Source: a virus
Reading direction: 5' to 3' (one strand)
Virus record (IMG/VR): IMGVR_UViG_3300028831_000428
Span: 1-43,253 of that record
Length of the DNA stretch: 43,253 nt
Position numbers and translations under genes: made by a program. Shown one piece after another: positions 7,949 through 43,253 of this stretch (the first letter of the stretch is position 1; each line of letters opens with the position of its first letter). The notes under the pieces are model-generated. The model worked only from the letters and a program-made list of their open reading frames with translations, had not been told where the DNA came from and did no database searches.

Positions 7949-8134
7949 ATGGACCCAAAGACAACAAAGAAAACTGGTACTTTTCAGGGTAAGAGTAACA
8001 AGCTGGGTGGCGGCGGACGTTTTGCGCAGATGGAGGCGAAAGGCGTGTCACCAGCGCTTGCAGCATATATTGGGCGAAAAATGTACGGAAAAAAGAAGAT
8101 GGCAAAGATGGCAGCCAAGGGAAAGAAGAGCTAG
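7949..8134 (+). CDS. Small, highly basic Lys/Gly-rich protein
   Basis: 61 aa with SD AGGAAGTG upstream. Preferred over the overlapping frame 7944-8171. Confidence 0.6.
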   Translation: MDPKTTKKTGTFQGKSNKLGGGGRFAQMEAKGVSPALAAYIGRKMYGKKKMAKMAAKGKKS

Positions 8135-8517
8135 TTGTATAGATCGTTACATTTATCTCGGTCAGACTTAAGGCGGGCATTAATAGAATTCCACTCGTCT
8201 AGAGTTAGCACATTTGTCTGTTTGCTATCTGATGATGGTTGGCCTTTTGTGCTTATGGCGTTTCCGTAAGCCCTGGCAGCCACATCAAGACATCGCTGAA
8301 GTGAAGTACCATCGGCAGACTGGACGGTCTTGACGTCTGATCGTAGTGCCATAACGGTGTCCTGCTGCGCTATTAGTTTGGTGTTGAGAATATTAATGTC
8401 ACCTTTGAGTCTAATAGTATATATTGCTAGTAGGATTATTGATATTGTAAGGAGCCCAATTAACGACAGACTGATAGCAGGAAATAGCCGTTTTGGACTA
8501 AATATGAGTTTTTTCAC
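8131..8517 (-). CDS. Membrane-anchored protein (one N-terminal TM segment)
   Basis: 128 aa, GTG start behind GGAGA. Hydrophobic stretch AISLSLIGLLTISIILLAIY. Last gene of the minus-strand island. Confidence 0.6.
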   Translation of the reverse strand: MKKLIFSPKRLFPAISLSLIGLLTISIILLAIYTIRLKGDINILNTKLIAQQDTVMALRSDVKTVQSADGTSLQRCLDVAARAYGNAISTKGQPSSDSKQTNVLTLDEWNSINARLKSDRDKCNDLYN

Positions 8518-8586
8518 TTAAGAATCTCCACGATTAATATGTTTGCAGCATATTTGAAACCAGCCTAGAAGTCAATGGAGATATCG

Positions 8587-8844
8587 CTATCCCATTTTTC
8601 TGTATAACTCATCGCCATGCAGCTTACGGAACTCTTCAGGATAGGCTCGTGCGAATTCTGGCTGATTGGGCTGGGTAATATCACGGCGATATTCAATCTT
8701 TTGCCAATGGCGCTCGAAGGCAGCACTGTCACCTTGTTGTAGTTGTTGAGGAAGGCAATTATCGCAGCCAGTCAGAATATTGCCATGTTTTATAATGCTG
8801 CGTATAGTGGCAGTGGGTTGGTTGCAGGTAGGACACTTATTCAT
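8587..8844 (-). CDS. Small zinc-ribbon protein (CxxC...CxxC)
   Basis: ATG at 8844 lies behind GGAGGAAG and overlaps the upstream stop as ATGA. Motif CPTCNQ...GCDNC. The ORF track extends it to 8883. Confidence 0.6.
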   Translation of the reverse strand: MNKCPTCNQPTATIRSIIKHGNILTGCDNCLPQQLQQGDSAAFERHWQKIEYRRDITQPNQPEFARAYPEEFRKLHGDELYRKMG

Positions 8845-9062
8845 TCTTCCTCCGGTAGGGGAAGAATGTCTAGTCTCATCCAATGCTCAAATATGGTCGC
8901 TTCGAGAGTAGTGATTGTTTTGGATTGCAGTGTGTCTAAGAGAACTTTATCCACCAAAATTCTATCAGGACGTTTTCCATGGCTTAATAGGAATGCATGG
9001 TATATTTTGGGTAATTCCTCGAGTGTTAGGTTGGTAATACCTCTTAAGTCTAAGTTATTCAT
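8841..9062 (-). CDS. Hypothetical protein
   Basis: 73-aa ORF, translationally coupled within the minus-strand operon. Confidence 0.55.
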   Translation of the reverse strand: MNNLDLRGITNLTLEELPKIYHAFLLSHGKRPDRILVDKVLLDTLQSKTITTLEATIFEHWMRLDILPLPEEE

Positions 9063-9285
9063 CAGGGTTCAATCTCCTTAACATTGCTTCGTGCTCCATT
9101 CTGGCTTGAGTTGCGATATCAAGGGGATCTAGAAAGATACTCTTGTCTTGTGACTCAGGCTTTTGTGCATCAGTCTTTTCTTTGATAGATTCTTGAAGAT
9201 TGCTGAGCATCTTTTTTAGTTGGTTATATTTGTAGCCAGTGTAGAAAGCTATGACTATGGCGATTATGAACGCCAGTTCTGTCAT
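9055..9285 (-). CDS. Small membrane protein (N-terminal TM)
   Basis: 76 aa with hydrophobic stretch LAFIIAIVIAFYTGY. Its start overlaps the groEL stop. Confidence 0.6.
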   Translation of the reverse strand: MTELAFIIAIVIAFYTGYKYNQLKKMLSNLQESIKEKTDAQKPESQDKSIFLDPLDIATQARMEHEAMLRRLNPDE

Positions 9286-10850
9286 TATTCTTCCTTAGCG
9301 TCCTCAAAAACGATGAGAGTATCCGTAGTCAGCATATCTGTGGCGCTGGCGGTGGCGTTTTTGATGATTTGCTGGACAACGAGGGCGGGGTCGATGATGC
9401 CCGTCTTGACCATATCAACTAGCTCGCCTTTGCCTCTGAGGTTAAAGCCGTGACCGGTGGGAGCTTTCATGGCTTCGTCTAGTTTTAGCTCTGCTGGCAG
9501 ATTGGCGTTAAGCAGGAGCTGCTTGAAGGTGTCACGAAGTGCCTCGCTGTAGGGAGAGCTGATGTCTAACTTGCTAAGCTCGAGCAGAGCAATGCCACCG
9601 CCTGGGACAATACCGGAGGTGTAGGCCGCACGGGTGGCATGGATAGCATCTTCGACCCGGAACTCGACTTCCTCTTTGACACTATCTGTGGCACCGCCGA
9701 TACGAAAGAGGGCGATCTTGCCTTCGAGCTTGGCGACACGGTCTTTCATCTTCTCGGCAACAGCATCTGATACCTCTGTTTCGATTTGGTCACGGATTTC
9801 TTGGATACGTGTTTTTACGGCTTCTGTGTCATTATTGGCAAATAGAGTAGATTCATTCTTGTTAGCCACGACTTTATCCACAGACCCTACACAGGATGTA
9901 TCAAATTCTCGAAGGTTTGATCCCTCTGTCAGTGGGTTACATTGTGCATAAATGGCAATGTCTTCGAGCAGGTATTTGCCCATCTCGCCAAACATAGCGG
10001 GGGTCTTTAGGATAACTGCATCAACTTTACCCTGATTGATGAAGTTAACTGCTGTCATATAGGCTGCTTCCTCTATATTGCCGATCAGGAGGAAACGAGG
10101 AATACCATCAGTCTGGGGGTTGAATTTGCGGGCTTGCAGGGCTTTGGTCAAGACGTCAGCGATGTCAGCAGCAGAGGTAAGGCGACGAATGGAGACGATA
10201 ACGAAGGGATCGATCAGCTCTTTCTTGCCAGCCTGGAGCGCTTGAAAGCCGGTTTGTAGGTAGTAACCATCGACATACTCGCGCTCGATGTCGTCGACCG
10301 GAGCTTTCTCAGTAATGATCCCGCCTTCGGCACCGACCCGCAGGACTGCATCAGCGATTAGCTCACCGAGCAGGGGATCGCCGGATGAGATAGTGGCGAC
10401 TTCTTTGAGTTGGCTGTCTTTGACCTTTTTGGTCATTGTGTCAAGCTTATCGAGGACTTTGTAGCTGTCCTGAAGGAACTGCTGTTTGACTTCCATTGGG
10501 TGCATACCGGCAGCGATGGCTAGTGTGCCACGTTGCATGAGGTGATAGGCAAGCGCGACCGTGGCTGTCGTGCCATCACCAGCAATGCGGTTAGTTGTTT
10601 CAGAGGCTTCAAGGACACGCTGGGTGCCCATGTTCTTTGGACGGTCAGATAGGTAAGTGTCACGGGCAACTGAGACACCATCGCGGGTAGTCAGGGGACG
10701 GCCAAAGGGCTTTTCAATCATAACATTACGGCCGCGTGGTCCGTAGGTCGAGGTAACAGCGTCGTAGACGAATCGGGCACCGGCTAGCAGCTCGGCGCGT
10801 GCTTGGTCGCCTTTAATGACGATTCTGTGGTCTTTTTTTGCTTGGGCCAT
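9285..10850 (-). CDS. groEL: Chaperonin GroEL (Cpn60), full length
   Basis: Motifs YGPRGRNV, DGTTTATV-like DGTTATVA, AVILKTPAMFGEMGKYLLEDIA (compare AVKAPGFGDRRKAMLQDIA) and GGGIALL. ATG at 10850 behind AAGGAG; the track start 10865 is an upstream TTG. Confidence 0.9.
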   Translation of the reverse strand: MAQAKKDHRIVIKGDQARAELLAGARFVYDAVTSTYGPRGRNVMIEKPFGRPLTTRDGVSVARDTYLSDRPKNMGTQRVLEASETTNRIAGDGTTATVALAYHLMQRGTLAIAAGMHPMEVKQQFLQDSYKVLDKLDTMTKKVKDSQLKEVATISSGDPLLGELIADAVLRVGAEGGIITEKAPVDDIEREYVDGYYLQTGFQALQAGKKELIDPFVIVSIRRLTSAADIADVLTKALQARKFNPQTDGIPRFLLIGNIEEAAYMTAVNFINQGKVDAVILKTPAMFGEMGKYLLEDIAIYAQCNPLTEGSNLREFDTSCVGSVDKVVANKNESTLFANNDTEAVKTRIQEIRDQIETEVSDAVAEKMKDRVAKLEGKIALFRIGGATDSVKEEVEFRVEDAIHATRAAYTSGIVPGGGIALLELSKLDISSPYSEALRDTFKQLLLNANLPAELKLDEAMKAPTGHGFNLRGKGELVDMVKTGIIDPALVVQQIIKNATASATDMLTTDTLIVFEDAKEE

Positions 10851-10851
10851 A

Positions 10852-11016
10852 CTACTCCTTGTCAACTTTCTTATCTAATTCGTGTCTGATTGTCTCCAGG
10901 ACATTTAGATGACCAGCTAGGCCTTGCATCTCATCGGACGGTACGTCGCTCTTCATTATCTCCACCTTTAGGGCGCCGATCAGCTCGTCTAGGGTCAAGC
11001 CGATGGGTATGATCAT
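10852..11016 (-). CDS. 54-aa ORF between the co-chaperonin-like gene and groEL
   Basis: Not in the ORF track (<60 aa). ATGA overlap with the upstream stop; its TAG lies 1 nt before the groEL ATG. Confidence 0.45.
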   Translation of the reverse strand: MIIPIGLTLDELIGALKVEIMKSDVPSDEMQGLAGHLNVLETIRHELDKKVDKE

Positions 11017-11393
11017 ACTGAAAAACTCCCTGCTCCATCGCTGTGGATGTTATGTGCTGTGCTGTCTGCGTCGTCTTCGGCGATTAAAGAGGTCAATTTG
11101 ACAAAGGCAAATCGCTCGCCGTCTTTCTCGATGATGTTGCCCTTTTCAGATAGAGCGGTCCAATAGACGCGGCGGCCGATCTTTGATTCCCAATCTTTGT
11201 ATAATTCATCGAGTTTGTCACGTTCCATGAAGCTATTCTCGAAGGCAAAGCTCCACATGCCAAAGTAGTTGAACTTGGCAGGCAGAGCAACTAGTATTCC
11301 GCTTTCTGCAGTGTTCTTCTCGTCCGAACCAAAGCCGAATTCGTCTGTATCGAGTTTTATTTTTGCTAGATCATTCAATGGTGCTAGTTCCAC
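11013..11393 (-). CDS. GroES/gp31-like co-chaperonin candidate (divergent, 126 aa)
   Basis: Lies directly upstream of groEL. N-terminus LAPLNDLAKIKL, then ...TAESGILVALP, resembling the GroES mobile-loop region (TAGGIVLP). GTG start behind AGGAGGG. Confidence 0.5.
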   Translation of the reverse strand: MELAPLNDLAKIKLDTDEFGFGSDEKNTAESGILVALPAKFNYFGMWSFAFENSFMERDKLDELYKDWESKIGRRVYWTALSEKGNIIEKDGERFAFVKLTSLIAEDDADSTAHNIHSDGAGSFSV

Positions 11394-11413: not shown

Positions 11414-11452
11414 AAAGGCTGTCCTTAGCCGTGGAGTCTAAGGACAGCCTTT
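11414..11452 (-). promoter_or_regulatory. 15-bp perfect hairpin in the 5' leader of the chaperonin operon
   Basis: AAAGGCTGTCCTTAG (11414-11428) pairs with CTAAGGACAGCCTTT (11438-11452). The loop is 9 nt. Confidence 0.6.
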
Positions 11453-11480
11453 ATAATTTATACTCCACGGAAACATCTAT

Positions 11481-11510
11481 ACGTTAGCACAAACAGAACA
11501 AAAATAGAAC
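11481..11510 (-). promoter_or_regulatory. 30-nt promoter/operator block, minus orientation, facing the GroES/GroEL operon
   Basis: The reverse complement reads GTTCTATTTTTGTTCTGTTTGTGCTAACGT, matching the block at 38490-38519 at 26 of 30 positions. Confidence 0.5.
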
Positions 11511-11522
11511 ATCTGATTGACG

Positions 11523-11571
11523 TGATATAATAAACCTAACAGCGGAATTCCCCTATCACAGGGGAATTTTT
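11523..11571 (+). promoter_or_regulatory. Late promoter plus leader hairpin module, copy B
   Basis: TGATATAAT (-10 at 11526-11531), then 6 nt, then AACAGCGG (11538-11545). Stem AATTCCCC (11546-11553) / GGGGAATT (11561-11568), then TTT and ATG at 11573. Confidence 0.6.
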
Positions 11572-11572
11572 G

Positions 11573-11698
11573 ATGTCTACAACCAAACGCAAAAAAGAAA
11601 CACGCACAAACCCAGAAACTGGTCTAAAAGAGGAGCGCTATGAGGGCGATACATTCTGGGTGGCAACTATTAGCGCTACGGGTGGCTATCATGACTAA
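11573..11698 (+). CDS. Small basic protein (41 aa)
   Basis: The ATG sits where copy G has its ATG (shared GATGTCTACAA). Its stop overlaps the next ATG (ATGACTAA). Not in the track (<60 aa). Confidence 0.45.
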   Translation: MSTTKRKKETRTNPETGLKEERYEGDTFWVATISATGGYHD

Positions 11699-16529: not shown

Positions 16530-16584
16530 GAGCGCGTCCTTGCCAAGGACGAGGCCGGGGGTTAGAGTCCCCCGACCCGCACCA
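16530..16584 (+). other. tRNA-Gly(GCC) 3'-half-like segment, candidate attP core
   Basis: Anticodon arm CGTCC-TTGCCAA-GGACG (16535-16551), T arm GGGGG-TTAGAGT-CCCCC (16557-16573), acceptor 3' strand GACCCGC, then A and CCA (ends at 16584). No matching 5' acceptor strand. Confidence 0.55.
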
Positions 16585-20975: not shown

Positions 20976-22127
20976 ATGGCATTCAACGAGAAGCTTGGTT
21001 ACCATGATGAGACAGAAGCTCTGATCGACCGAATGTGTCGCAATGTCGAGCGTAAGAACTTCCGACTTAATAAGGTAAAGGCAGCCGAGTGCATCTTGCA
21101 AACCTATGATCTGTTCGATCTACCACGTCCAAAGGATATTGTCTGGTGTGTTGACATATTCGATAGCCAGTATCAAGAAGCGGCTTGGTCGGCTGGGTCG
21201 GCTAGGTCGGCTTGGTCGGCTTGGTCGGCTGGGTCGGCTGGGTCGGCTTGGTCGGCTGGGTCGGCTAGGTCGGCTAGGTCGGCTAGGTCGGCTGGGTCGG
21301 CTGGGTCGGCTTGGTCGGCTGGGTCGGCTAGGTCGGCTGGGTCGGCTAGGTCGGCTTGGTCGGCTTGGTCGGCTGGGTCGGCTGGGTCGGCTTGGTCGGC
21401 TGGGTCGGCTAGGTCGGCTGGGTCGGCTAGGTCGGCTTGGTCGGCTGGGTCGGCGCTTGACTATGATTTCGACTACTTTGTCATCGAGCATCAGTACTGC
21501 CTTGACCCTACCGACGGTACGCCTAATGAAAGCGACCGTAAGTATCTCGCATACTCAGAACTACTAATGCAAGCCAAAGAGTATGGCGCAGGCTATCGAG
21601 TCGAGTGGGAAGACACACTCTACATTGTTCCCACTCCTCTGGTTCGTATCGATGGTCAGAATCGCTTCCACTCAGAGACAGAGCCAGCTATTCGCTGGAA
21701 GGGCGGTAAAGAGCTCTATTACCTCTACGGTGAAGAGTTCGACAAAAAGCTATGGCAAAGGGTCACAAGCGGCACCTTTACCGCCAAGGAATTAATGGCG
21801 ATTGAAGATAGCGACCAACGCTCTATTGCTATGACCTATCTAGTACCAAAGGACATGTTGGAGCAAATGGATGCGAAATTTGTGCATGAAGGTATCAAAG
21901 GCAATAGGCTCTATAGATGTGATGATTACCTAGGTAGTGGCGAGACAGAATACGCCCTACTCATGCAAGACGCCAGCACCCCACGCGAGTTTGTCAGCTT
22001 CGTGCCCAAAGATTTTGACCACCACAATAATGCAGACGAGGCCACGGCTGGCATGTACCGACGTGGGGATGGGGTGATGTTGCCGGTTGAGGATTATCTG
22101 CTGATTGGGAGTGAATGGGAAGCGTAG
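20976..22127 (+). CDS. Protein with a 30-unit S-A-(W/G/R) tripeptide array and a C-terminal globular domain
   Basis: 383-aa ORF. The array is encoded by 21182-21451. The C-terminal part contains EPAIRWKGGKELYYLYGEEF. Confidence 0.7.
   Translation: MAFNEKLGYHDETEALIDRMCRNVERKNFRLNKVKAAECILQTYDLFDLPRPKDIVWCVDIFDSQYQEAAWSAGSARSAWSAWSAGSAGSAWSAGSARSARSARSAGSAGSAWSAGSARSAGSARSAWSAWSAGSAGSAWSAGSARSAGSARSAWSAGSALDYDFDYFVIEHQYCLDPTDGTPNESDRKYLAYSELLMQAKEYGAGYRVEWEDTLYIVPTPLVRIDGQNRFHSETEPAIRWKGGKELYYLYGEEFDKKLWQRVTSGTFTAKELMAIEDSDQRSIAMTYLVPKDMLEQMDAKFVHEGIKGNRLYRCDDYLGSGETEYALLMQDASTPREFVSFVPKDFDHHNNADEATAGMYRRGDGVMLPVEDYLLIGSEWEA
21182..21451 (+). repeat. Perfect 9-bp tandem array, 30 units of GGCTNGGTC (N = T, G or A)
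   Basis: Read directly. Units differ only at the fifth base. All six frames are open across the array. Confidence 0.95.
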
Positions 22128-24694: not shown

Positions 24695-24873
24695 AATACG
24701 CAGGAATTTACACAGACGAAGGCTTAATTTGTACTGAGTTTTGTGACACCGAAGAAGAGGCGTGGCAACAATTGATTGACAGCAGCGGTGAGAGCCGCGA
24801 GAGCCTTGAAAGTGCTCATTATGTTCAAGGCTTCACCGATAAAGAGATAAGGGAGCTTCCAGATGTCGGCTGA
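24691..24873 (+). CDS. Small acidic protein
   Basis: 60 aa, GTGA overlap. Confidence 0.55.
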   Translation: MKYAGIYTDEGLICTEFCDTEEEAWQQLIDSSGESRESLESAHYVQGFTDKEIRELPDVG

Positions 24874-25054
24874 ATCAACAAAGTTTCGTTTCTCGTATTA
24901 CTCAGATCCAGAATATGGAACTTGGGCATGCCCTGAATGCGAAAAGGGATATGCGTACTACGGCTCCTTGCTTCGCCATACAGTAAGAGTTCATGGCTAT
25001 AAATGGCTAGATAATAAGAGCGTGTATAAACCAATGGAGGCGTCAGATGAATAA
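24863..25054 (+). CDS. C2H2-type zinc-finger-like small protein
   Basis: CPEC-x12-HTVRVH fits the pattern C-x2-C-x12-H-x4-H. Confidence 0.55.
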   Translation: MSAESTKFRFSYYSDPEYGTWACPECEKGYAYYGSLLRHTVRVHGYKWLDNKSVYKPMEASDE

Positions 25055-25478
25055 CCACTCCGACCCTATAAGAGAGTGGCAAGGCAACACAGAATTCAAT
25101 GCACAGCAGCGTCATGCCGACCACCTCTTGCAGACTAATACAAATAACCCGGATGACTTTGAATGGTTGGATGAAGCGATAATGCATATAGTCTATGAGA
25201 CGGGCCAGATGCGACGTGGTAAAACAATTAGCGCGAGTAGCTTCCCCGAGGCTAAATCCGCCATCATCGCCCGCTTCCAAGCCCAAGAGCAACGTCATCA
25301 GGTGGAGGTGGTTAGGGCGCGGGTGCAAACCATAGAGCAATGCATCACCTTTTTAAGCTTTGAAGGTATAAAACTCAGTGATGAACAAGAAGAATCGGTG
25401 CGTCAATACCAACGGCAATTAGAAGCCCAACTCAACACCCTCACCACTACAGGGGAAAAGGAGAGAACAGATGAATAA
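25047..25478 (+). CDS. Hypothetical protein
   Basis: 143 aa with SD GGAGG. Confidence 0.6.
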   Translation: MNNHSDPIREWQGNTEFNAQQRHADHLLQTNTNNPDDFEWLDEAIMHIVYETGQMRRGKTISASSFPEAKSAIIARFQAQEQRHQVEVVRARVQTIEQCITFLSFEGIKLSDEQEESVRQYQRQLEAQLNTLTTTGEKERTDE

Positions 25479-27030: not shown

Positions 27031-27045
27031 TGTTTATGCTATTGT
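27031..27045 (+). promoter_or_regulatory. TGTTTATGCTATTGT promoter-like element upstream of terS
   Basis: Same TGTTT-TGCTA family as 38506-38519, 29366-29380, 16428-16441 and 11481-11496 (minus strand). Confidence 0.4.
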
Positions 27046-27108
27046 GTGGGTAGAAAATAGAACATAAATGGAACACTCCTCTTAACATACAGGCGGATTT
27101 CAGGCATC

Positions 27109-27501
27109 GTGGGTAGCAAAGATTTCAATCCTGACATAGGTAAAAACACACAGTATAGGCCTGGTGAATCGGGTAACCCCGCTGGGAAGCCAAAGGGGGC
27201 TCTACATCTGTCGACGCATATACAGAACCTCTTAAATGACCCGGAGTTTACGACATGGGTGACTGATCCGAAGGAGGGCTGGAAAGAGTACACTGGTGCT
27301 CCTGTCAAAGCGATTATTAGGGTGCTGATCATCAAGGCGATGGCTGGCGATGTGAAGGCCTTTGATGCACTGGGTAAGTATGGATACGGCACGAAGTTAC
27401 AGTTGAGTAATGATCCTGAGAACCCTGTTAGTGCTCCTGCGGATCCAGCCTTGACTGCTAAATGGACCGAGTTCTTGAAGAACGAAACGCACGATGGCTA
27501 A
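27109..27501 (+). CDS. terS: Terminase small subunit candidate
   Basis: Lies directly upstream of and overlapping terL. The motif GESGNPAGKPKG resembles the NPxGRPKG motif of many small terminases (from memory). GTG start. Confidence 0.6.
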   Translation: MGSKDFNPDIGKNTQYRPGESGNPAGKPKGALHLSTHIQNLLNDPEFTTWVTDPKEGWKEYTGAPVKAIIRVLIIKAMAGDVKAFDALGKYGYGTKLQLSNDPENPVSAPADPALTAKWTEFLKNETHDG

Positions 27502-32596: not shown

Positions 32597-32626
32597 AGCC
32601 TAGCTAAAATAGAACAAAAATAGTAC
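32597..32626 (-). promoter_or_regulatory. 30-nt promoter/operator block, minus orientation
   Basis: The reverse complement GTACTATTTTTGTTCTATTTTAGCTAGGCT matches 38490-38519 at 24 of 30 positions. Confidence 0.4.
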
Positions 32627-32680
32627 AATTAGGGCAACAGCGGATATTCCCCATAGATTAATTTCTAATGGGGAATTTTC
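32624..32680 (+). promoter_or_regulatory. Late promoter plus leader hairpin module, copy C (portal)
   Basis: TACAAT (32624-32629), then 6 nt, then AACAGCGG (32636-32643). Stem ATTCCCCAT (32646-32654) / ATGGGGAAT (32668-32676), then TTTC and TTG at 32681. Confidence 0.6.
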
Positions 32681-34768
32681 TTGTCTAGCCCATACTCGAA
32701 TACTCAGAACGCATACGAACCGCTGTTTAGCGAGACGTATTTGCCTGATGAAGAATATGAGCTGTTTAATTTGTCGATGCCGGATGACCGGTTGCAGAAG
32801 ATGTTGATTGATTCGCTGGACTTGAATGTCCAATATTGGAATCAGAAGCCTTGGAACTTGCAGCAAGTCGATAAAGAGAACGTCAACTTCTTGCTGGGTG
32901 ATCAACTGGAGGATATTAAGTTCCTGCAGGATGATGCGAAGTACAAGGACAACCGATTGTTTGCCTCGATCCGGGCGATTTTGAGCTATGCGACGGGTCA
33001 ATTGGCTGTGCCGGAGCTGACACCGAGCCGGGGGGATGAGATTTATTTGAAGGGCGCGCGGGATTTGCAGAGTGCGTTATATCAACACTCAGCAGACGAG
33101 AAGGTAGAGGCCAAGACGCGGGCGGCGGTGTTGAATCTGATCACTCGTAAGCGGGGGTATCTGAAAATGCGCTGGGATCCGAACGCGGGAATGTATGGGG
33201 ATGTTGTGACTGAGGTGTGCAACCCTGAGGACATTATTGTCGACCGTTATGCGCCGTATTTGGGCAATCCGAATGTGATTTATCACCGTGTGCGCTGTTC
33301 GATTGATGAGTTGATCGCTCGGTTCCCCAAGAAAGCTAACGATATTCGGGTCGCTTACTCGATCAAACAGGGTCGCTACACGCAAATGGCGCGGTTTGTG
33401 ACGTACTTTGAGGCCTGGTTCACCTATATGGAGAAGAATGTGCCGAAAGAGGGCGTGGCGTGGTTCGTACCGGAGTATAAACTGATCCTTGATAAGATGC
33501 CCAACCCGAACTGGGTGTACACGGGTGATGACAAGAAGGACAAGATGACGAATGTGCTGCAGCGGCCACCAAAGCCGTTTGTGGCCTTTAACTACATCAA
33601 CTTGGGGCATTCGTACATTGACGAGACGTGTCTGTTCGAGCAAGCCCGGCCGCTGCAAGAGATGCTGAACCGGCGCGGGCGGCAGATCTGGGAAAATGCG
33701 GACTATGTGAATGGACGGTGGGTGGCTAGCAAAGACTCGTTTTCGACTGAAGATGCCTACAAGATTGTTAATAAAGGCGCGAAGACGATCGCCATGGCTA
33801 AGGGGTCAGACGTGAGTAAGGCGCTGGTCAATGTTAACTCACCTGAGCTGCCAGCATATGTCTACAACACTCTGCTGGACACCCGCAATGAGATTGATGT
33901 CATGATGGGCACGCCGTCGCAGTTCCGGGGTGCGTCGCCCGACAAGCAGGATACTTTGGGTCGTGACATGATGGTCAAACAGCAAGCCGGGATGCTACAA
34001 GACGACCTAGTAAAGTGCGTGTCGACCAGCATGGAGGAGTATTACAAGATCAAACTCCAGATGATGCGGGTGTATTACACCGATGACTATTGGTTCCAGT
34101 GTAAGGGTGCGGATGGTAAGTATGAATTTATCATGATCAATGGGGATAATATTGACTCGAACGTGAAGGTCGGGGTACAGGTTGACTCGACACTGCCTCT
34201 GGATAAGCAACAGATCCGGGCGACTGCGTTGCAACTATGGCAAGCTGGGCAGTCCATTGACTACCGTACGCTAATGGATGATCTGGGTCTGCCCAATCCT
34301 GACATGCGGGCTGAGCGCTACATGAAGAGCAAGCTCGATCCGGCGGCCTACACCAAGTCTATCGAACTGTCACAGATTAACACTGAGGCAGAGGCTGACA
34401 TCAAGTTGCTGACCCAGAATAAGGTGCCTGAAGAGCGCGATGAGTATAGTGCGGATTACCTGAACTACTTTAACAAGTATATAGCGTCGAACCGCTTTGC
34501 CAAGTTGCAGGGCGAGGACGCCGAAGCGGCGCAACGTATTACGGCCTTCCTGATGACAGTCCAGCACGTCGCCAACGACAGCGCTAACCTACAAGAATTA
34601 ATCCTGGACGACGCGGGCATGATCCCGATGCCATCACCGCAACCTGTGCCTCCGGGTGCGCCTGGAGATATGGGCAGTCAGCCACAGCCCGGCGGATTAC
34701 CACCTGTGCCCGGTAGTCCCGTAGGCGCCCCACCAGTTCAATCAAGCCCACCAGTACCAACGCAATAA
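32681..34768 (+). CDS. Portal protein
   Basis: 695 aa, upstream of the scaffold and capsid genes. TTG start at the position equivalent to the ATG of copies B and G. Pro-rich C-terminal tail. Confidence 0.75.
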   Translation: MSSPYSNTQNAYEPLFSETYLPDEEYELFNLSMPDDRLQKMLIDSLDLNVQYWNQKPWNLQQVDKENVNFLLGDQLEDIKFLQDDAKYKDNRLFASIRAILSYATGQLAVPELTPSRGDEIYLKGARDLQSALYQHSADEKVEAKTRAAVLNLITRKRGYLKMRWDPNAGMYGDVVTEVCNPEDIIVDRYAPYLGNPNVIYHRVRCSIDELIARFPKKANDIRVAYSIKQGRYTQMARFVTYFEAWFTYMEKNVPKEGVAWFVPEYKLILDKMPNPNWVYTGDDKKDKMTNVLQRPPKPFVAFNYINLGHSYIDETCLFEQARPLQEMLNRRGRQIWENADYVNGRWVASKDSFSTEDAYKIVNKGAKTIAMAKGSDVSKALVNVNSPELPAYVYNTLLDTRNEIDVMMGTPSQFRGASPDKQDTLGRDMMVKQQAGMLQDDLVKCVSTSMEEYYKIKLQMMRVYYTDDYWFQCKGADGKYEFIMINGDNIDSNVKVGVQVDSTLPLDKQQIRATALQLWQAGQSIDYRTLMDDLGLPNPDMRAERYMKSKLDPAAYTKSIELSQINTEAEADIKLLTQNKVPEERDEYSADYLNYFNKYIASNRFAKLQGEDAEAAQRITAFLMTVQHVANDSANLQELILDDAGMIPMPSPQPVPPGAPGDMGSQPQPGGLPPVPGSPVGAPPVQSSPPVPTQ

Positions 34769-35814: not shown

Positions 35815-36888
35815 ATGTCGCAAACAGCACAAAACGACAGAGTGAACAACATCACTCTCGAAGATATCAATGCGAAAGTTGTTGACACCGTCAACCGCTC
35901 GAGCGAAATCATGAAGCGCGTTGTCAGTCGCCCAGAGCGCTGGAATGGCCGTAGCTATCAGAGTCCGATCTTTGTTAACAATTCGAGCCTTGGGCAGAGC
36001 TTTAAGGGTGTTGAGACATTTGATACTTCTATCGACATGAACACGGTCAACATGACCTGGTACCCAACTGGCTACGCACAGCCGGTCGGTATCTCGGTTG
36101 TCGAGCGCTCAATCAACGCAACCCCAGCGGGTGTGATTGATCTGTACAAGGTGTCTTACCAATACGCGCAGAACTCGATGGTCACTGCACTTGCCAATAT
36201 CTTTTACGGTGTGGGGAGTGGCAATGACTTTGACGGCTTGGCCTTGATCGTCGATGACGGAACAAGCACTTCGAGCTATGGCGGATTGACCCGTGCTACT
36301 TACCCAACGATCAACGGATTCCTGGTGAGCGCCTCTGGTGGTGTCCTCGACCTCGCAACTATGGCTTCGGCTGACGATGGTGCAACCATCTCGGGCGACA
36401 TGAGTGAAACGCCGAATGTCATCCTAACTAACCAAACTGTCTGGAGCTTATACGACAGCTTGCTCGAGCCTACCGTCCGTTCGACCTTCTCAGGTCTGGG
36501 TGGTGAGTTCATCGATGGCTCAACAGCTGTCAAACAGGCTCCAAGCGCCGGTGATGGCTTCAGCTTGAACGCTGGTGCAACCTCTACTCGTTTCCGCGCA
36601 AAACCGCTTGTCCGCGACCAGAAGAGCCCGACGGGTAAAATGTGGTTCCTGAACGAAGACTGGTTCCACTTCCGCAGCCTGCCGTTGGTTGGTCTGAACA
36701 TTGTTGCAACAACTGAGAGCGTTACGGCTGGTGCCTATGATAACTACAAAGTCAGCGCCTTCCAGTTCCGCGAGTTCATGAGTCCTGTCAACGCGCTGAG
36801 CGAGGTCGGCATCTTTGTGATGTATGGCAACTTCTACTGCGAGAACCCTAACCGTAACGCTCTGATTAGCGGCATCACCACGACTTAA
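35815..36888 (+). CDS. Major capsid protein
   Basis: 357 aa immediately after the scaffold, with the strongest promoter and SD AGGAGA. The call is positional. Confidence 0.75.
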   Translation: MSQTAQNDRVNNITLEDINAKVVDTVNRSSEIMKRVVSRPERWNGRSYQSPIFVNNSSLGQSFKGVETFDTSIDMNTVNMTWYPTGYAQPVGISVVERSINATPAGVIDLYKVSYQYAQNSMVTALANIFYGVGSGNDFDGLALIVDDGTSTSSYGGLTRATYPTINGFLVSASGGVLDLATMASADDGATISGDMSETPNVILTNQTVWSLYDSLLEPTVRSTFSGLGGEFIDGSTAVKQAPSAGDGFSLNAGATSTRFRAKPLVRDQKSPTGKMWFLNEDWFHFRSLPLVGLNIVATTESVTAGAYDNYKVSAFQFREFMSPVNALSEVGIFVMYGNFYCENPNRNALISGITTT

Positions 36889-38474: not shown

Positions 38475-38500
38475 CACCTAGCAATAGGTGTTCTATTTTT
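38475..38500 (+). terminator. Intrinsic terminator
   Basis: CACCTA-GCAA-TAGGTG (38475-38490), followed by TTCTATTTTT. Confidence 0.55.
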
Positions 38501-38519
38501 GTTCTGTTTATGCTATACT
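38490..38519 (+). promoter_or_regulatory. 30-nt promoter/operator block with an extended -10
   Basis: GTTCTATTTTTGTTCTGTTTATGCTATACT. TGC-TATACT lies at 38511-38519. Confidence 0.5.
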
Positions 38520-42736: not shown

Positions 42737-42785
42737 TGGTATAATAAACCCAACAGCGGAATTCCCCTATTACAGGGGAATTTTT
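42737..42785 (+). promoter_or_regulatory. Late promoter plus leader hairpin module, copy G
   Basis: TGGTATAAT (-10 at 42740-45), then 6 nt, then AACAGCGG (42752-59). Stem AATTCCCC (42760-67) / GGGGAATT (42775-82), then TTT and ATG at 42787. Confidence 0.6.
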
Positions 42786-42786
42786 G

Positions 42787-42981
42787 ATGTCTACAAATGT
42801 GCCGGTTACAGTATGGCAGCCAAATAATGGCGACGGGGAGTTATCGAACTCAACGCCATACAGTATTGTCGATCCGTCGGGCAACCAATTAGTGGATACA
42901 GTCGCCAATGTGATTATCGATACTGGTGTATTGTTCACTGGCAAGCCTACCACGGTATGGAGCGAAGACGATGGCCGATAA
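42787..42981 (+). CDS. Small protein preceding the tail fibre
   Basis: 64 aa. ATG 42787; the track uses the TTG 3 nt upstream. Its stop overlaps the fibre ATG. Confidence 0.6.
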   Translation: MSTNVPVTVWQPNNGDGELSNSTPYSIVDPSGNQLVDTVANVIIDTGVLFTGKPTTVWSEDDGR

Positions 42982-43253
42982 AGTAATCGGTGATTACACC
43001 GCCGCGGTCAGTATTGACGGGTCGACTCATTATTTGCTCATTCAACCTGGCGGGAGCTCGACAGCTTATAACAGAATCAATCGTAATGTATTTTTGGGTA
43101 TTGCAGGATCACCGGTTGGTACCTCGGATTCACAGGTTATCATGAATAAGACAATTGGTAATACCAATACATTCACCTCCAAGGATAGCTTATTCACTTT
43201 GCAGGATGACAGCGACACGACAAAACAGGCTCAGTTTCAACTGTCAGGTATTA
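42971..43253 (+). CDS. Tail fibre protein, N-terminal part (continues at base 1/30 across the junction)
   Basis: ATG 42971 is open to the window end and in frame with 30-860. MADKVIGDYTAAVSIDGSTHYLLIQ is a common fibre N-terminus. Confidence 0.7.
   Translation, partial: MADKVIGDYTAAVSIDGSTHYLLIQPGGSSTAYNRINRNVFLGIAGSPVGTSDSQVIMNKTIGNTNTFTSKDSLFTLQDDSDTTKQAQFQLSGI
43113..43253. repeat. Terminal redundancy, identical to 1-141
   Basis: Read directly. Confidence 0.95.

Follow-up and report, generated by a model that had tools for sequence, protein, structure and literature searches.

A highly divergent GroES-type gene beside a divergent GroEL gene in a phage lineage that probably infects Saccharibacteria

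We analysed a stretch of DNA of 43,253 nucleotides (nt) (hereafter the window; IMG/VR record IMGVR_UViG_3300028831_000428) and found that a minus-strand island at 8131-11393 carries genes for a highly divergent homologue of the co-chaperonin Cpn10/GroES (126 amino acids, aa) and for a predicted full-length but divergent group-I chaperonin (521 aa) that keeps the ATPase residues. It is likely that the island is a self-contained phage chaperonin operon, whose lid (the Cpn10-like protein) and ring (the Cpn60/GroEL protein) are cognate and serve virion protein folding in a probable Saccharibacteria host. The island consists of seven tightly packed open reading frames (ORFs), all of them where a first-pass annotation, made from the DNA letters, had placed them, including the 54-aa ORF between the lid and ring genes. 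From the 126-aa gene to the zinc-ribbon gene, the first six have adjacent or overlapping starts and stops, the arrangement of a translationally coupled operon. From the first gene to the last, the island reads as follows:

11013-11393, minus strand: divergent Cpn10/GroES-type co-chaperonin gene, 126 aa, with a GTG start and an AGGAGG Shine-Dalgarno sequence (profile, fold and synteny)
10852-11016, minus strand: accessory ORF, 54 aa, sporadic in the cassette (homologues in related loci L021, L058 and L070)
9285-10850, minus strand: divergent group-I Cpn60/GroEL gene, predicted, 521 aa, without the Gly-Gly-Met (GGM) tail (Pfam PF00118, PHROG 5725, catalytic residues)
9055-9285, minus strand: 76-aa protein with an N-terminal hydrophobic helix; position directly 3' of cpn60 kept in relatives, no family match
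8841-9062, minus strand: 73-aa soluble protein, an ORF with no family match
8587-8844, minus strand: CxxC...CxxC zinc-ribbon protein, 85 aa, whose C-terminus has a conserved YPE motif; a conserved member of the cassette
8131-8517, minus strand: 128-aa protein with an N-terminal hydrophobic helix, an ORF 69 nt from the upstream gene and the last minus-strand gene

The zinc-ribbon ORF as such spans 8587-8883; since its relatives align from residue 14, the gene most likely occupies 8587-8844 (85 aa). The four genes downstream of cpn60 had been described at first pass as encoding membrane or zinc-ribbon proteins, which holds for the 76-aa and 128-aa products (a hydrophobic helix, by eye) and for the 85-aa product (a zinc ribbon) and fails for the 73-aa product.

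The identity of the lid emerged from family-wide comparison. Taken singly, the 126-aa protein gave no match in a tblastn search of phage genomes and an E-value of 1.1 with a home-built Cpn10 hidden Markov model (HMM). A word-indexed metagenome search retrieved 172 homologues, all unnamed, and an exhaustive profile search yielded 49 family clusters at 50% identity, with lengths of 107-157 aa. In a diverse alignment of this family (50 members, mean column identity 26%; hereafter A3), 19 of the 50 members match Pfam Cpn10 (PF00166), with a best E-value of 2.5e-7. Searched against PDB sequences, the A3 profile matched Cpn20 (E 1.1e-7) and Mycobacterium tuberculosis Cpn10 (E 0.01), and comparison of A3 by hhalign with nine canonical Cpn10 sequences returned a probability of 95.6% (E 1.1e-8) over 96 columns. 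Narrower alignments performed poorly: when the close-family alignment was compared by hhalign with one GroES sequence, the outcome was uninformative, with a probability of 0.5% at the N-terminus only, and the close-family profile gave a spurious repeat-protein match alone against PDB sequences, so that the wider A3 was needed.

The predicted structure agrees with this assignment. AlphaFold (AF2) models of the 126-aa protein reached a predicted local distance difference test score (pLDDT) of 78.2 with the close alignment and of 86.7 with A3 (predicted template-modelling score, pTM, 0.81), and low confidence was restricted to a loop (residues 21-30) and the tail. In Foldseek searches of the PDB with both models, the top 33 matches were all Cpn10/GroES-type chains, with probabilities of up to 1.00 and target-normalised template-modelling (TM) scores of 0.55-0.76. 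T4 gp31 ranked 34 in the first search and 32 in the second (probability 0.38-0.72); the likeness is to cellular Cpn10 rather than to gp31, with which the first-pass annotation had compared the extra length. Among the viral structures of BFVD, the top match was an unannotated member of the same family, and among the other matches listed, the named ones were almost all viral (co-)chaperonins or GroES proteins, besides about a dozen nameless ones. A search for a canonical Cpn10 elsewhere in the window found none. Taken together, the profile-profile comparison, the relatives that match Pfam Cpn10 and the AlphaFold fold establish that the 126-aa protein is a highly divergent Cpn10/GroES homologue, and the Cpn10 beta-barrel anticipated in the first-pass annotation is borne out by both models.

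To place the parts of the lid, we relied on a register in which the hhalign alignment and the AlphaFold model agree. The putative equivalent of the GroES mobile loop corresponds to residues ~14-30 (LDTDEFGFGSDEKNTAE), between strands 1 and 2, and is the sole internal segment of low confidence. A conserved (F/Y)G(F/L) motif, FGF in the window protein, aligns with GroES GGIVL. The xSGI(L/V)xxLP segment singled out at first pass is present as ESGILVALP; its counterpart in GroES is not the mobile loop but the strand after it, TRGEIIAVG. In place of the roof hairpin there is a ~32-residue insert (~residues 37-70) that includes a helix (58-69) and a conserved WSFAFE.S motif, with S-F-x-F-E-x-S invariant, and an extra C-terminal tail of ~18 aa (~residues 108-126) ends in G-x-G-S-F in the long-form members. 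The additional length of the lid therefore comes from the roof insert and the C-terminal tail, not from a longer loop, and so has a different origin from that of gp31.

The ring protein was recognised directly. Residues 34-519 of the 521-aa protein align with positions 2-487 of the 490 in Pfam PF00118 (Cpn60_TCP1; 150.8 bits, cut-off 34.3), and the protein matches PHROG 5725, 'chaperonin groEL', with 346.7 bits (E 4.5e-103). The GroEL strings listed at first pass (DGTTATVA, AVILKTPAMFGE..LEDIA and GGGIALL) were all found. All NCBIfam GroEL models scored 252-328 bits, below their curated cut-offs (TIGR02348, 316 bits against 582; the best subfamily model, 328 against 352), which by sequence places the protein as a homologue outside the curated cellular GroEL family. 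It is ~34% identical to Salmonella GroEL, and in a search of 50,697 records, phage and stray bacterial, the best match also reaches 34%. In a PDB sequence search, bacterial GroELs scored best (258 bits), followed by the chaperonins of phages EL (gp146, 103 bits) and OBP (56 bits).

An alignment of the 521-aa protein with Salmonella GroEL and six clade members revealed that the nucleotide-binding and catalytic residues D52, G86-D87-G88, D398, G414-G416 and D495 are invariant; one residue of the T89-T91 run is missing. The roles of apical-groove and inter-ring residues given here are those that we take over from E. coli GroEL. In the apical domain, Y199 is conservatively replaced by F, L259 by Y, L234 by A and V264 by N, and the Y203/F204 stretch falls in a 6-residue gap. 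In addition, helix H of the protein is followed by an insert of ~10 residues, and 10 residues are deleted around E434. Positions of inter-ring contact are mostly unconserved (K105 to L, E461 to P, S463 to E, R452 to K, and the E434 region deleted), which hints at an altered, perhaps single-ring, architecture. The C-terminus reads ...VFEDAKEE, as expected from the first-pass report of a missing Gly-Met tail, and the Gly-Gly-Met tail is absent across the whole clade. That clade comprises more than 100 relatives with 56-93% identity on independent contigs from many samples, many of the contigs being 41-44 kb long. Because more than 100 relatives occur on contigs of up to ~41-44 kb, the chaperonin is a core gene of the lineage and not a recent capture from a host.

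The lid and ring genes remain together over a wide range of divergence. Of the 27 related loci whose downstream sequence extends for at least ~300 nt, 26 have cpn60 after the cpn10-like gene, at a distance of -1 to 624 nt, and this synteny spans identities of 28-83% for the cpn10-like protein and 44-93% for Cpn60. Of the related loci (numbered with an L in this text), 4 are from IMG/VR and 13 from JGI metagenomes, and the same gene order recurs in independent assemblies. A near-identity DNA search of the island against the 50,697 phage records gave no match. The closest relatives lack the intervening 54-aa ORF and have lid and ring genes with an ATGA overlap; strict coupling is confined to these relatives.

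Several small genes accompany the pair. Homologues of the 54-aa protein, 47-75% identical, are encoded between lid and ring in L021 (3183-3362) and L058 (3112-3282), and in L070 (4001-4228) one lies two genes downstream of cpn60 on another phage backbone (GpA terminase, P22-type portal); the 54-aa ORF is thus a real but sporadic, mobile accessory of the chaperonin cassette. The 76-aa protein has homologues at the same position in L001-L003, L005, L007, L008, L026, L057, L058, L060 and L063. Homologues of the zinc-ribbon protein, which weakly matches PHROG 1076 (FmdB-like), are encoded downstream of cpn60 in L001, L007, L019, L021, L026, L058, L068 and L070. The 76-aa membrane protein and the zinc-ribbon protein travel with the chaperonin pair and probably act with it. 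For the 73-aa protein, tblastn found no homologue at E<=1e-4 in any related locus, and the 128-aa protein had no homologue in any of them. The small island proteins gave no convincing match in Pfam, PHROG or NCBIfam, and PADLOC detected no match to a defence system. By eye, an 80-aa ORF between the cpn10-like gene and cpn60 of L007 (6378-6620) resembles the 73-aa protein; small genes would then be shuffled within the cassette, the 73-aa ORF being downstream of cpn60 in the window and its L007 counterpart between lid and ring. We also considered a relationship of the 54-aa ORF or the zinc-ribbon protein to gp39.2, a small T4 protein that reportedly modulates GroEL, and found no similarity, so that gp39.2 is kept as an analogy alone.

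Upstream of the lid gene, two elements bear on how the operon may be expressed, namely a promoter/operator-like block that recurs elsewhere in the genome and a structured leader located between the promoter and the Shine-Dalgarno sequence:

11485-11514, minus strand: promoter/operator-like block, GTTCTATTTTTGTTCTGTTT(G)TGCTA, with two direct GTTCTRT repeats followed by an extended -10-like TGCTAACGT
38486-38515, plus strand: second copy of the block, ahead of the 38528 tail-gene operon
32601-32627, minus strand: third, weaker copy, inverted, just upstream of the portal gene
11414-11470, minus strand: structured 5' leader with interleaved helices a, b, a', b' in a pseudoknot-type order (fold and relatives)

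The 30-nt block that the first-pass annotation had reported for both the chaperonin and the 38528 operons is real: its copies at 11485-11514 (minus) and 38486-38515 (plus) are 93% complementary, and none of 100 shuffles matched. The GTTCTRT direct repeats are 11 nt apart (GTTCTRT-N4-GTTCTRT). The closest relative keeps the block ahead of its cpn10-like gene and has a better -10 (TGCTATACT) there, and the same repeat occurs, inverted, upstream of the cpn10-like gene in the distant L021 (~2790-2820). The repeat pair is probably the binding site of a phage regulator, by which the chaperonin operon would be linked to the late genes. A different, plus-strand unit is also repeated in the window, at 11523-11582, 42737-42796 and ~32627-32683, and each of the three copies stands at the head of a plus-strand gene (11573, 42787 and, for the portal, 32681). 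Its order is an extended -10 (TGnTATAAT or TACAAT), AACAGCGGA, a hairpin (TTCCCC...GGGGAA), TTTT and a start codon; no separate Shine-Dalgarno sequence is visible in the unit, and the GGGGAA arm may be a sequestered one.

In the leader of the window, helix a (11470-11462, CCGTGGAGT) is followed by b (11452-11438), a' (11437-11429, ACTCCACGG) and b' (11428-11414), and the nested b:b' hairpin has a predicted energy of -34.4 kcal/mol (z -4.15). The same a, b, a', b' layout, with wholly different helix sequences, was found in 10 distinct versions upstream of the cpn10-like gene (the window, L057, L026, L060, L067, L058, L059, L061, L066 and L065), and for each sequence none of 300 shuffles reached its score. 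In the relatives, the leader's own L2 and L3 measure 0-4 nt, and a distance of 13-21 nt separates the end of b' from the start codon. The leader RNA is strongly covarying across relatives, and it matches no Rfam family. L3 does not leave room for both helices to form in full, so that they may be competing pairings. As a speculation, the leader might act by attenuation, given the U-run that some relatives have after b:b'.

The window as a whole is a complete phage genome, in which family searches identified a large terminase, a portal, a major head protein at 35815-36888, a tail fibre and an integrase. Bases 1-141 are an exact repeat of 43113-43253; this 141-nt terminal duplication represents either a direct terminal repeat or the overlap that arises when a circular or circularly permuted genome is assembled, and the unique length is 43,112 bp. 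The island lies between a 605-aa plus-strand gene and a cluster of tail-fibre-like, multi-membrane-helix and M23 peptidase/endolysin-like genes, ~4 kb from the integrase gene, and its GC content (0.44-0.53) is similar to that of the remaining genome. That the genome is otherwise plus-stranded, as stated at first pass, is likely yet unproven, as two further long minus-strand ORFs (24825-25340 and 27039-27392) occur, both without family matches. A 383-aa protein encoded at 20976-22127 (plus) consists largely of ~35 tandem tripeptide repeats, S-A-(W/G/R), with no PHROG match; the repeats are encoded by a 9-nt tandem array at 21127-21517.

Information on the host comes from an integrated relative. 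L026 (1-7622), whose lid is 77% identical to that of the window, lies on a 91.8-kb contig (JGI 3300053722, 91,784 bp) beside an integrase. The adjoining cellular genes encode rpmG, a glycogen-synthase-type glycosyltransferase, GH57 and GH15. The glycosyltransferase has 94% protein identity to a gene of a Candidatus Saccharibacteria metagenome-assembled genome (MAG), its next-best matches (64-67%) include Saccharibacteria and Saccharimonadales MAGs, and the flanking DNA is 83% identical over 4.9 kb to the same MAG (contig CAZZHV010000023.1). At the L026 junction, beside the integrase, we recognised by eye a tRNA-Thr-like 3' fragment. The window in turn has a tRNA-Gly(GCC)-like 3' portion at 16530-16584 (plus), ~100 nt downstream of the integrase gene, in which an anticodon arm, a T arm (GGGGG-TTAGAGT-CCCCC) and an acceptor end (CCGCACCA) can be discerned by eye; ARAGORN found no complete tRNA in the window, and 16530-16584 is likely the core of the phage attachment site (attP). 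The lid family occurs on JGI metagenome contigs and in a Hainich sample labelled 01um. From the one contig of L026, the likely host is a member of the Saccharibacteria (TM7), bacteria of the Candidate Phyla Radiation (CPR) with ultra-small cells. A literature search for chaperonins in phages of Saccharibacteria or other CPR bacteria gave nothing relevant.

Based on these observations, we propose that the divergent lid and the divergent Cpn60 would form a cognate, co-evolved pair. The lid would dock on the apical domains of the phage GroEL through its short flexible loop (residues ~14-30, FGF) and close the folding chamber, whose roof would be remodelled by the ~32-residue insert, and ATP hydrolysis would cycle the complex as in GroEL-GroES. 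Transcription would start at the operon's own leftward promoter, whose operator-like repeat also occurs at the promoters of the portal and tail operons, and the transcript would carry the conserved structured leader. Because of this shared repeat and the conserved leader, we infer that the operon is expressed together with the late virion genes. Its clients would then be phage structural proteins, folded in a host that may have little spare folding capacity.

Several points weigh against this proposal and have to be set beside the evidence for it. The 126-aa protein is without a match in Pfam (E<=1), PHROG and NCBIfam, and the Foldseek E-values are modest (~1e-3), with TM scores of 0.45-0.53 when normalised on query length. 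The lid loop is ~6 residues shorter than that of GroES and is without the IVL tripeptide, and on the side of the ring only L237 and V263 are identical among eight apical residues that contact GroES or substrate. The host assignment is based on one metagenomic contig, and a scan of GTDB genomes for the cpn10-like family found no copy. Finally, the timing of expression is read from the shared motif alone.

A rather unlikely alternative is that the island is a lysogenic-conversion cassette, from which the prophage expresses a chaperonin pair that benefits the host, for instance through the stress tolerance of a CPR bacterium with a reduced genome. Its opposite orientation and its own promoter, as in a moron, its distance of ~4 kb from the integrase gene and the integrated state of L026 would fit this explanation, as would the occurrence of the cassette on the GpA-terminase, P22-type-portal backbone, where it behaves as a mobile module. 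However, the promoter block also belongs to the operons of the tail genes and the portal, whose activity in a lysogen would not be expected, and the gene pair is a near-universal core component of a ~42-kb lineage rather than sporadic cargo.

It is very unlikely that the phage GroEL works alone, like EL gp146, and that the 126-aa protein, though of Cpn10 fold, has another role, for instance in assembly, as a decoy or in modulating the host GroEL in the manner of T4 gp31. The strong remodelling of the mobile loop and roof and the poor conservation of the apical groove would be compatible with such a role, and the unconserved E461, K105 and E434 region is typical also of atypical single-ring chaperonins. 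Against it, the cpn10-like gene adjoins cpn60 in 26 of the 27 loci across deep divergence, the phage GroEL is much closer to the co-chaperonin-dependent bacterial GroEL than to the EL and OBP chaperonins, and the flexible, low-confidence loop of the lid falls exactly at the position of the GroES mobile loop. A recent host-derived passenger gene or a chimeric assembly, the near-identity to a host GroEL that the first-pass annotation had also considered, is ruled out, since identity to any GroEL outside the clade is <=34% (phage and bacterial records), all NCBIfam scores fall below the cut-offs, and the more than 100 clade members (56-93% identity) and the gene order recur on independent contigs and assemblies.

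Viral GroES-GroEL pairs are already known as a kind, and the first-pass view that such a pair would be rare in phages was overstated. Pairs are common on virioplankton contigs, where GroES>GroEL and GroEL>GroES operons as well as a 'GroEL-only' clade have been described (Marine et al. 2017, PMC5649160), and an adjacent pair is present in Bacteroides phage DAC19. The virioplankton operons resemble the present one in that uncultured phages encode a divergent GroEL with an adjacent co-chaperonin, and the mobile loop motif is altered in their GroES>GroEL clade (PMC5649160). Their GroES genes were identified by BLAST and CDD (PMC5649160), whereas the lid described here is missed by searches of this type, so that contigs such as ours would be scored as 'GroEL only'; in addition, our lineage comes from soil and groundwater and likely infects Saccharibacteria. 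DAC19, a cultured phage, has a Cpn10 gene (87 aa) and a GroEL gene (32% identical) adjacent and in the same order. However, its genome is 179 kb, it belongs to a different clade, and its Cpn10 was found by BLAST with Salmonella GroES.

With bacterial groES>groEL operons, the phage operon shares the gene order, the ATP-binding and catalytic residues of Cpn60 and a Cpn10 beta-barrel with a putatively flexible loop between strands 1 and 2. It differs in its Cpn60, which is only ~34% identical to bacterial GroEL, lies below the NCBIfam cut-offs, is without the GGM tail and carries a gap, an insert and a deletion; in its lid, with a shorter loop (FGF, not IVL), a helix-containing roof insert of ~32 aa and an 18-aa tail; and in the extra conserved small genes of the operon.

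T4 gp31 acts on GroEL of the host. Its mobile loop is longer and the roof is absent, a change believed to adapt the chamber to a phage client. Like gp31 and RB49 CocO, the lid described here is a phage protein of Cpn10 fold with an altered roof, so divergent that sequence searches miss it. Unlike T4, however, the present phage encodes its own GroEL, and its lid has a shorter loop and a roof replaced by a larger insert. The jumbo-phage chaperonins (EL gp146, OBP gp246 and AR9 gp228), encoded by genomes of >200 kb, act without a co-chaperonin. They too are Cpn60 homologues without a GGM tail, whereas they are far more divergent than the ring described here (103 and 56 bits, against 258 for bacterial GroEL, in the PDB search), and a lid-type gene is present only in the latter case.

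What is new in the present operon is a lid family missed by standard annotation, together with conserved small partners, a structured leader and a probable CPR host. A GroEL that would be annotated as 'lid-less' has a lid that is visible by profile and structure methods alone, which bears on how frequent true independence from a co-chaperonin is. The remodelled roof, the short loop and the tail-less ring would illustrate how much drift the GroES-GroEL interface and chamber can undergo in a pair that stays together. Going further, one could imagine a four-part phage folding machine specialised for virion assembly in CPR bacteria, made up of a remodelled lid, a tail-less and perhaps single ring, a membrane anchor and a zinc-ribbon partner under the control of a pseudoknot-type leader, with cryptic lids accompanying many viral 'GroEL-only' clades; we regard this extension as quite unlikely in full. 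The leader RNA is a candidate for a new cis-regulatory element of chaperonin expression. If Saccharibacteria are indeed the hosts, a widespread lineage of CPR phages would import its own folding machine, and chaperone capacity would then appear to be a limiting resource in ultra-small cells.

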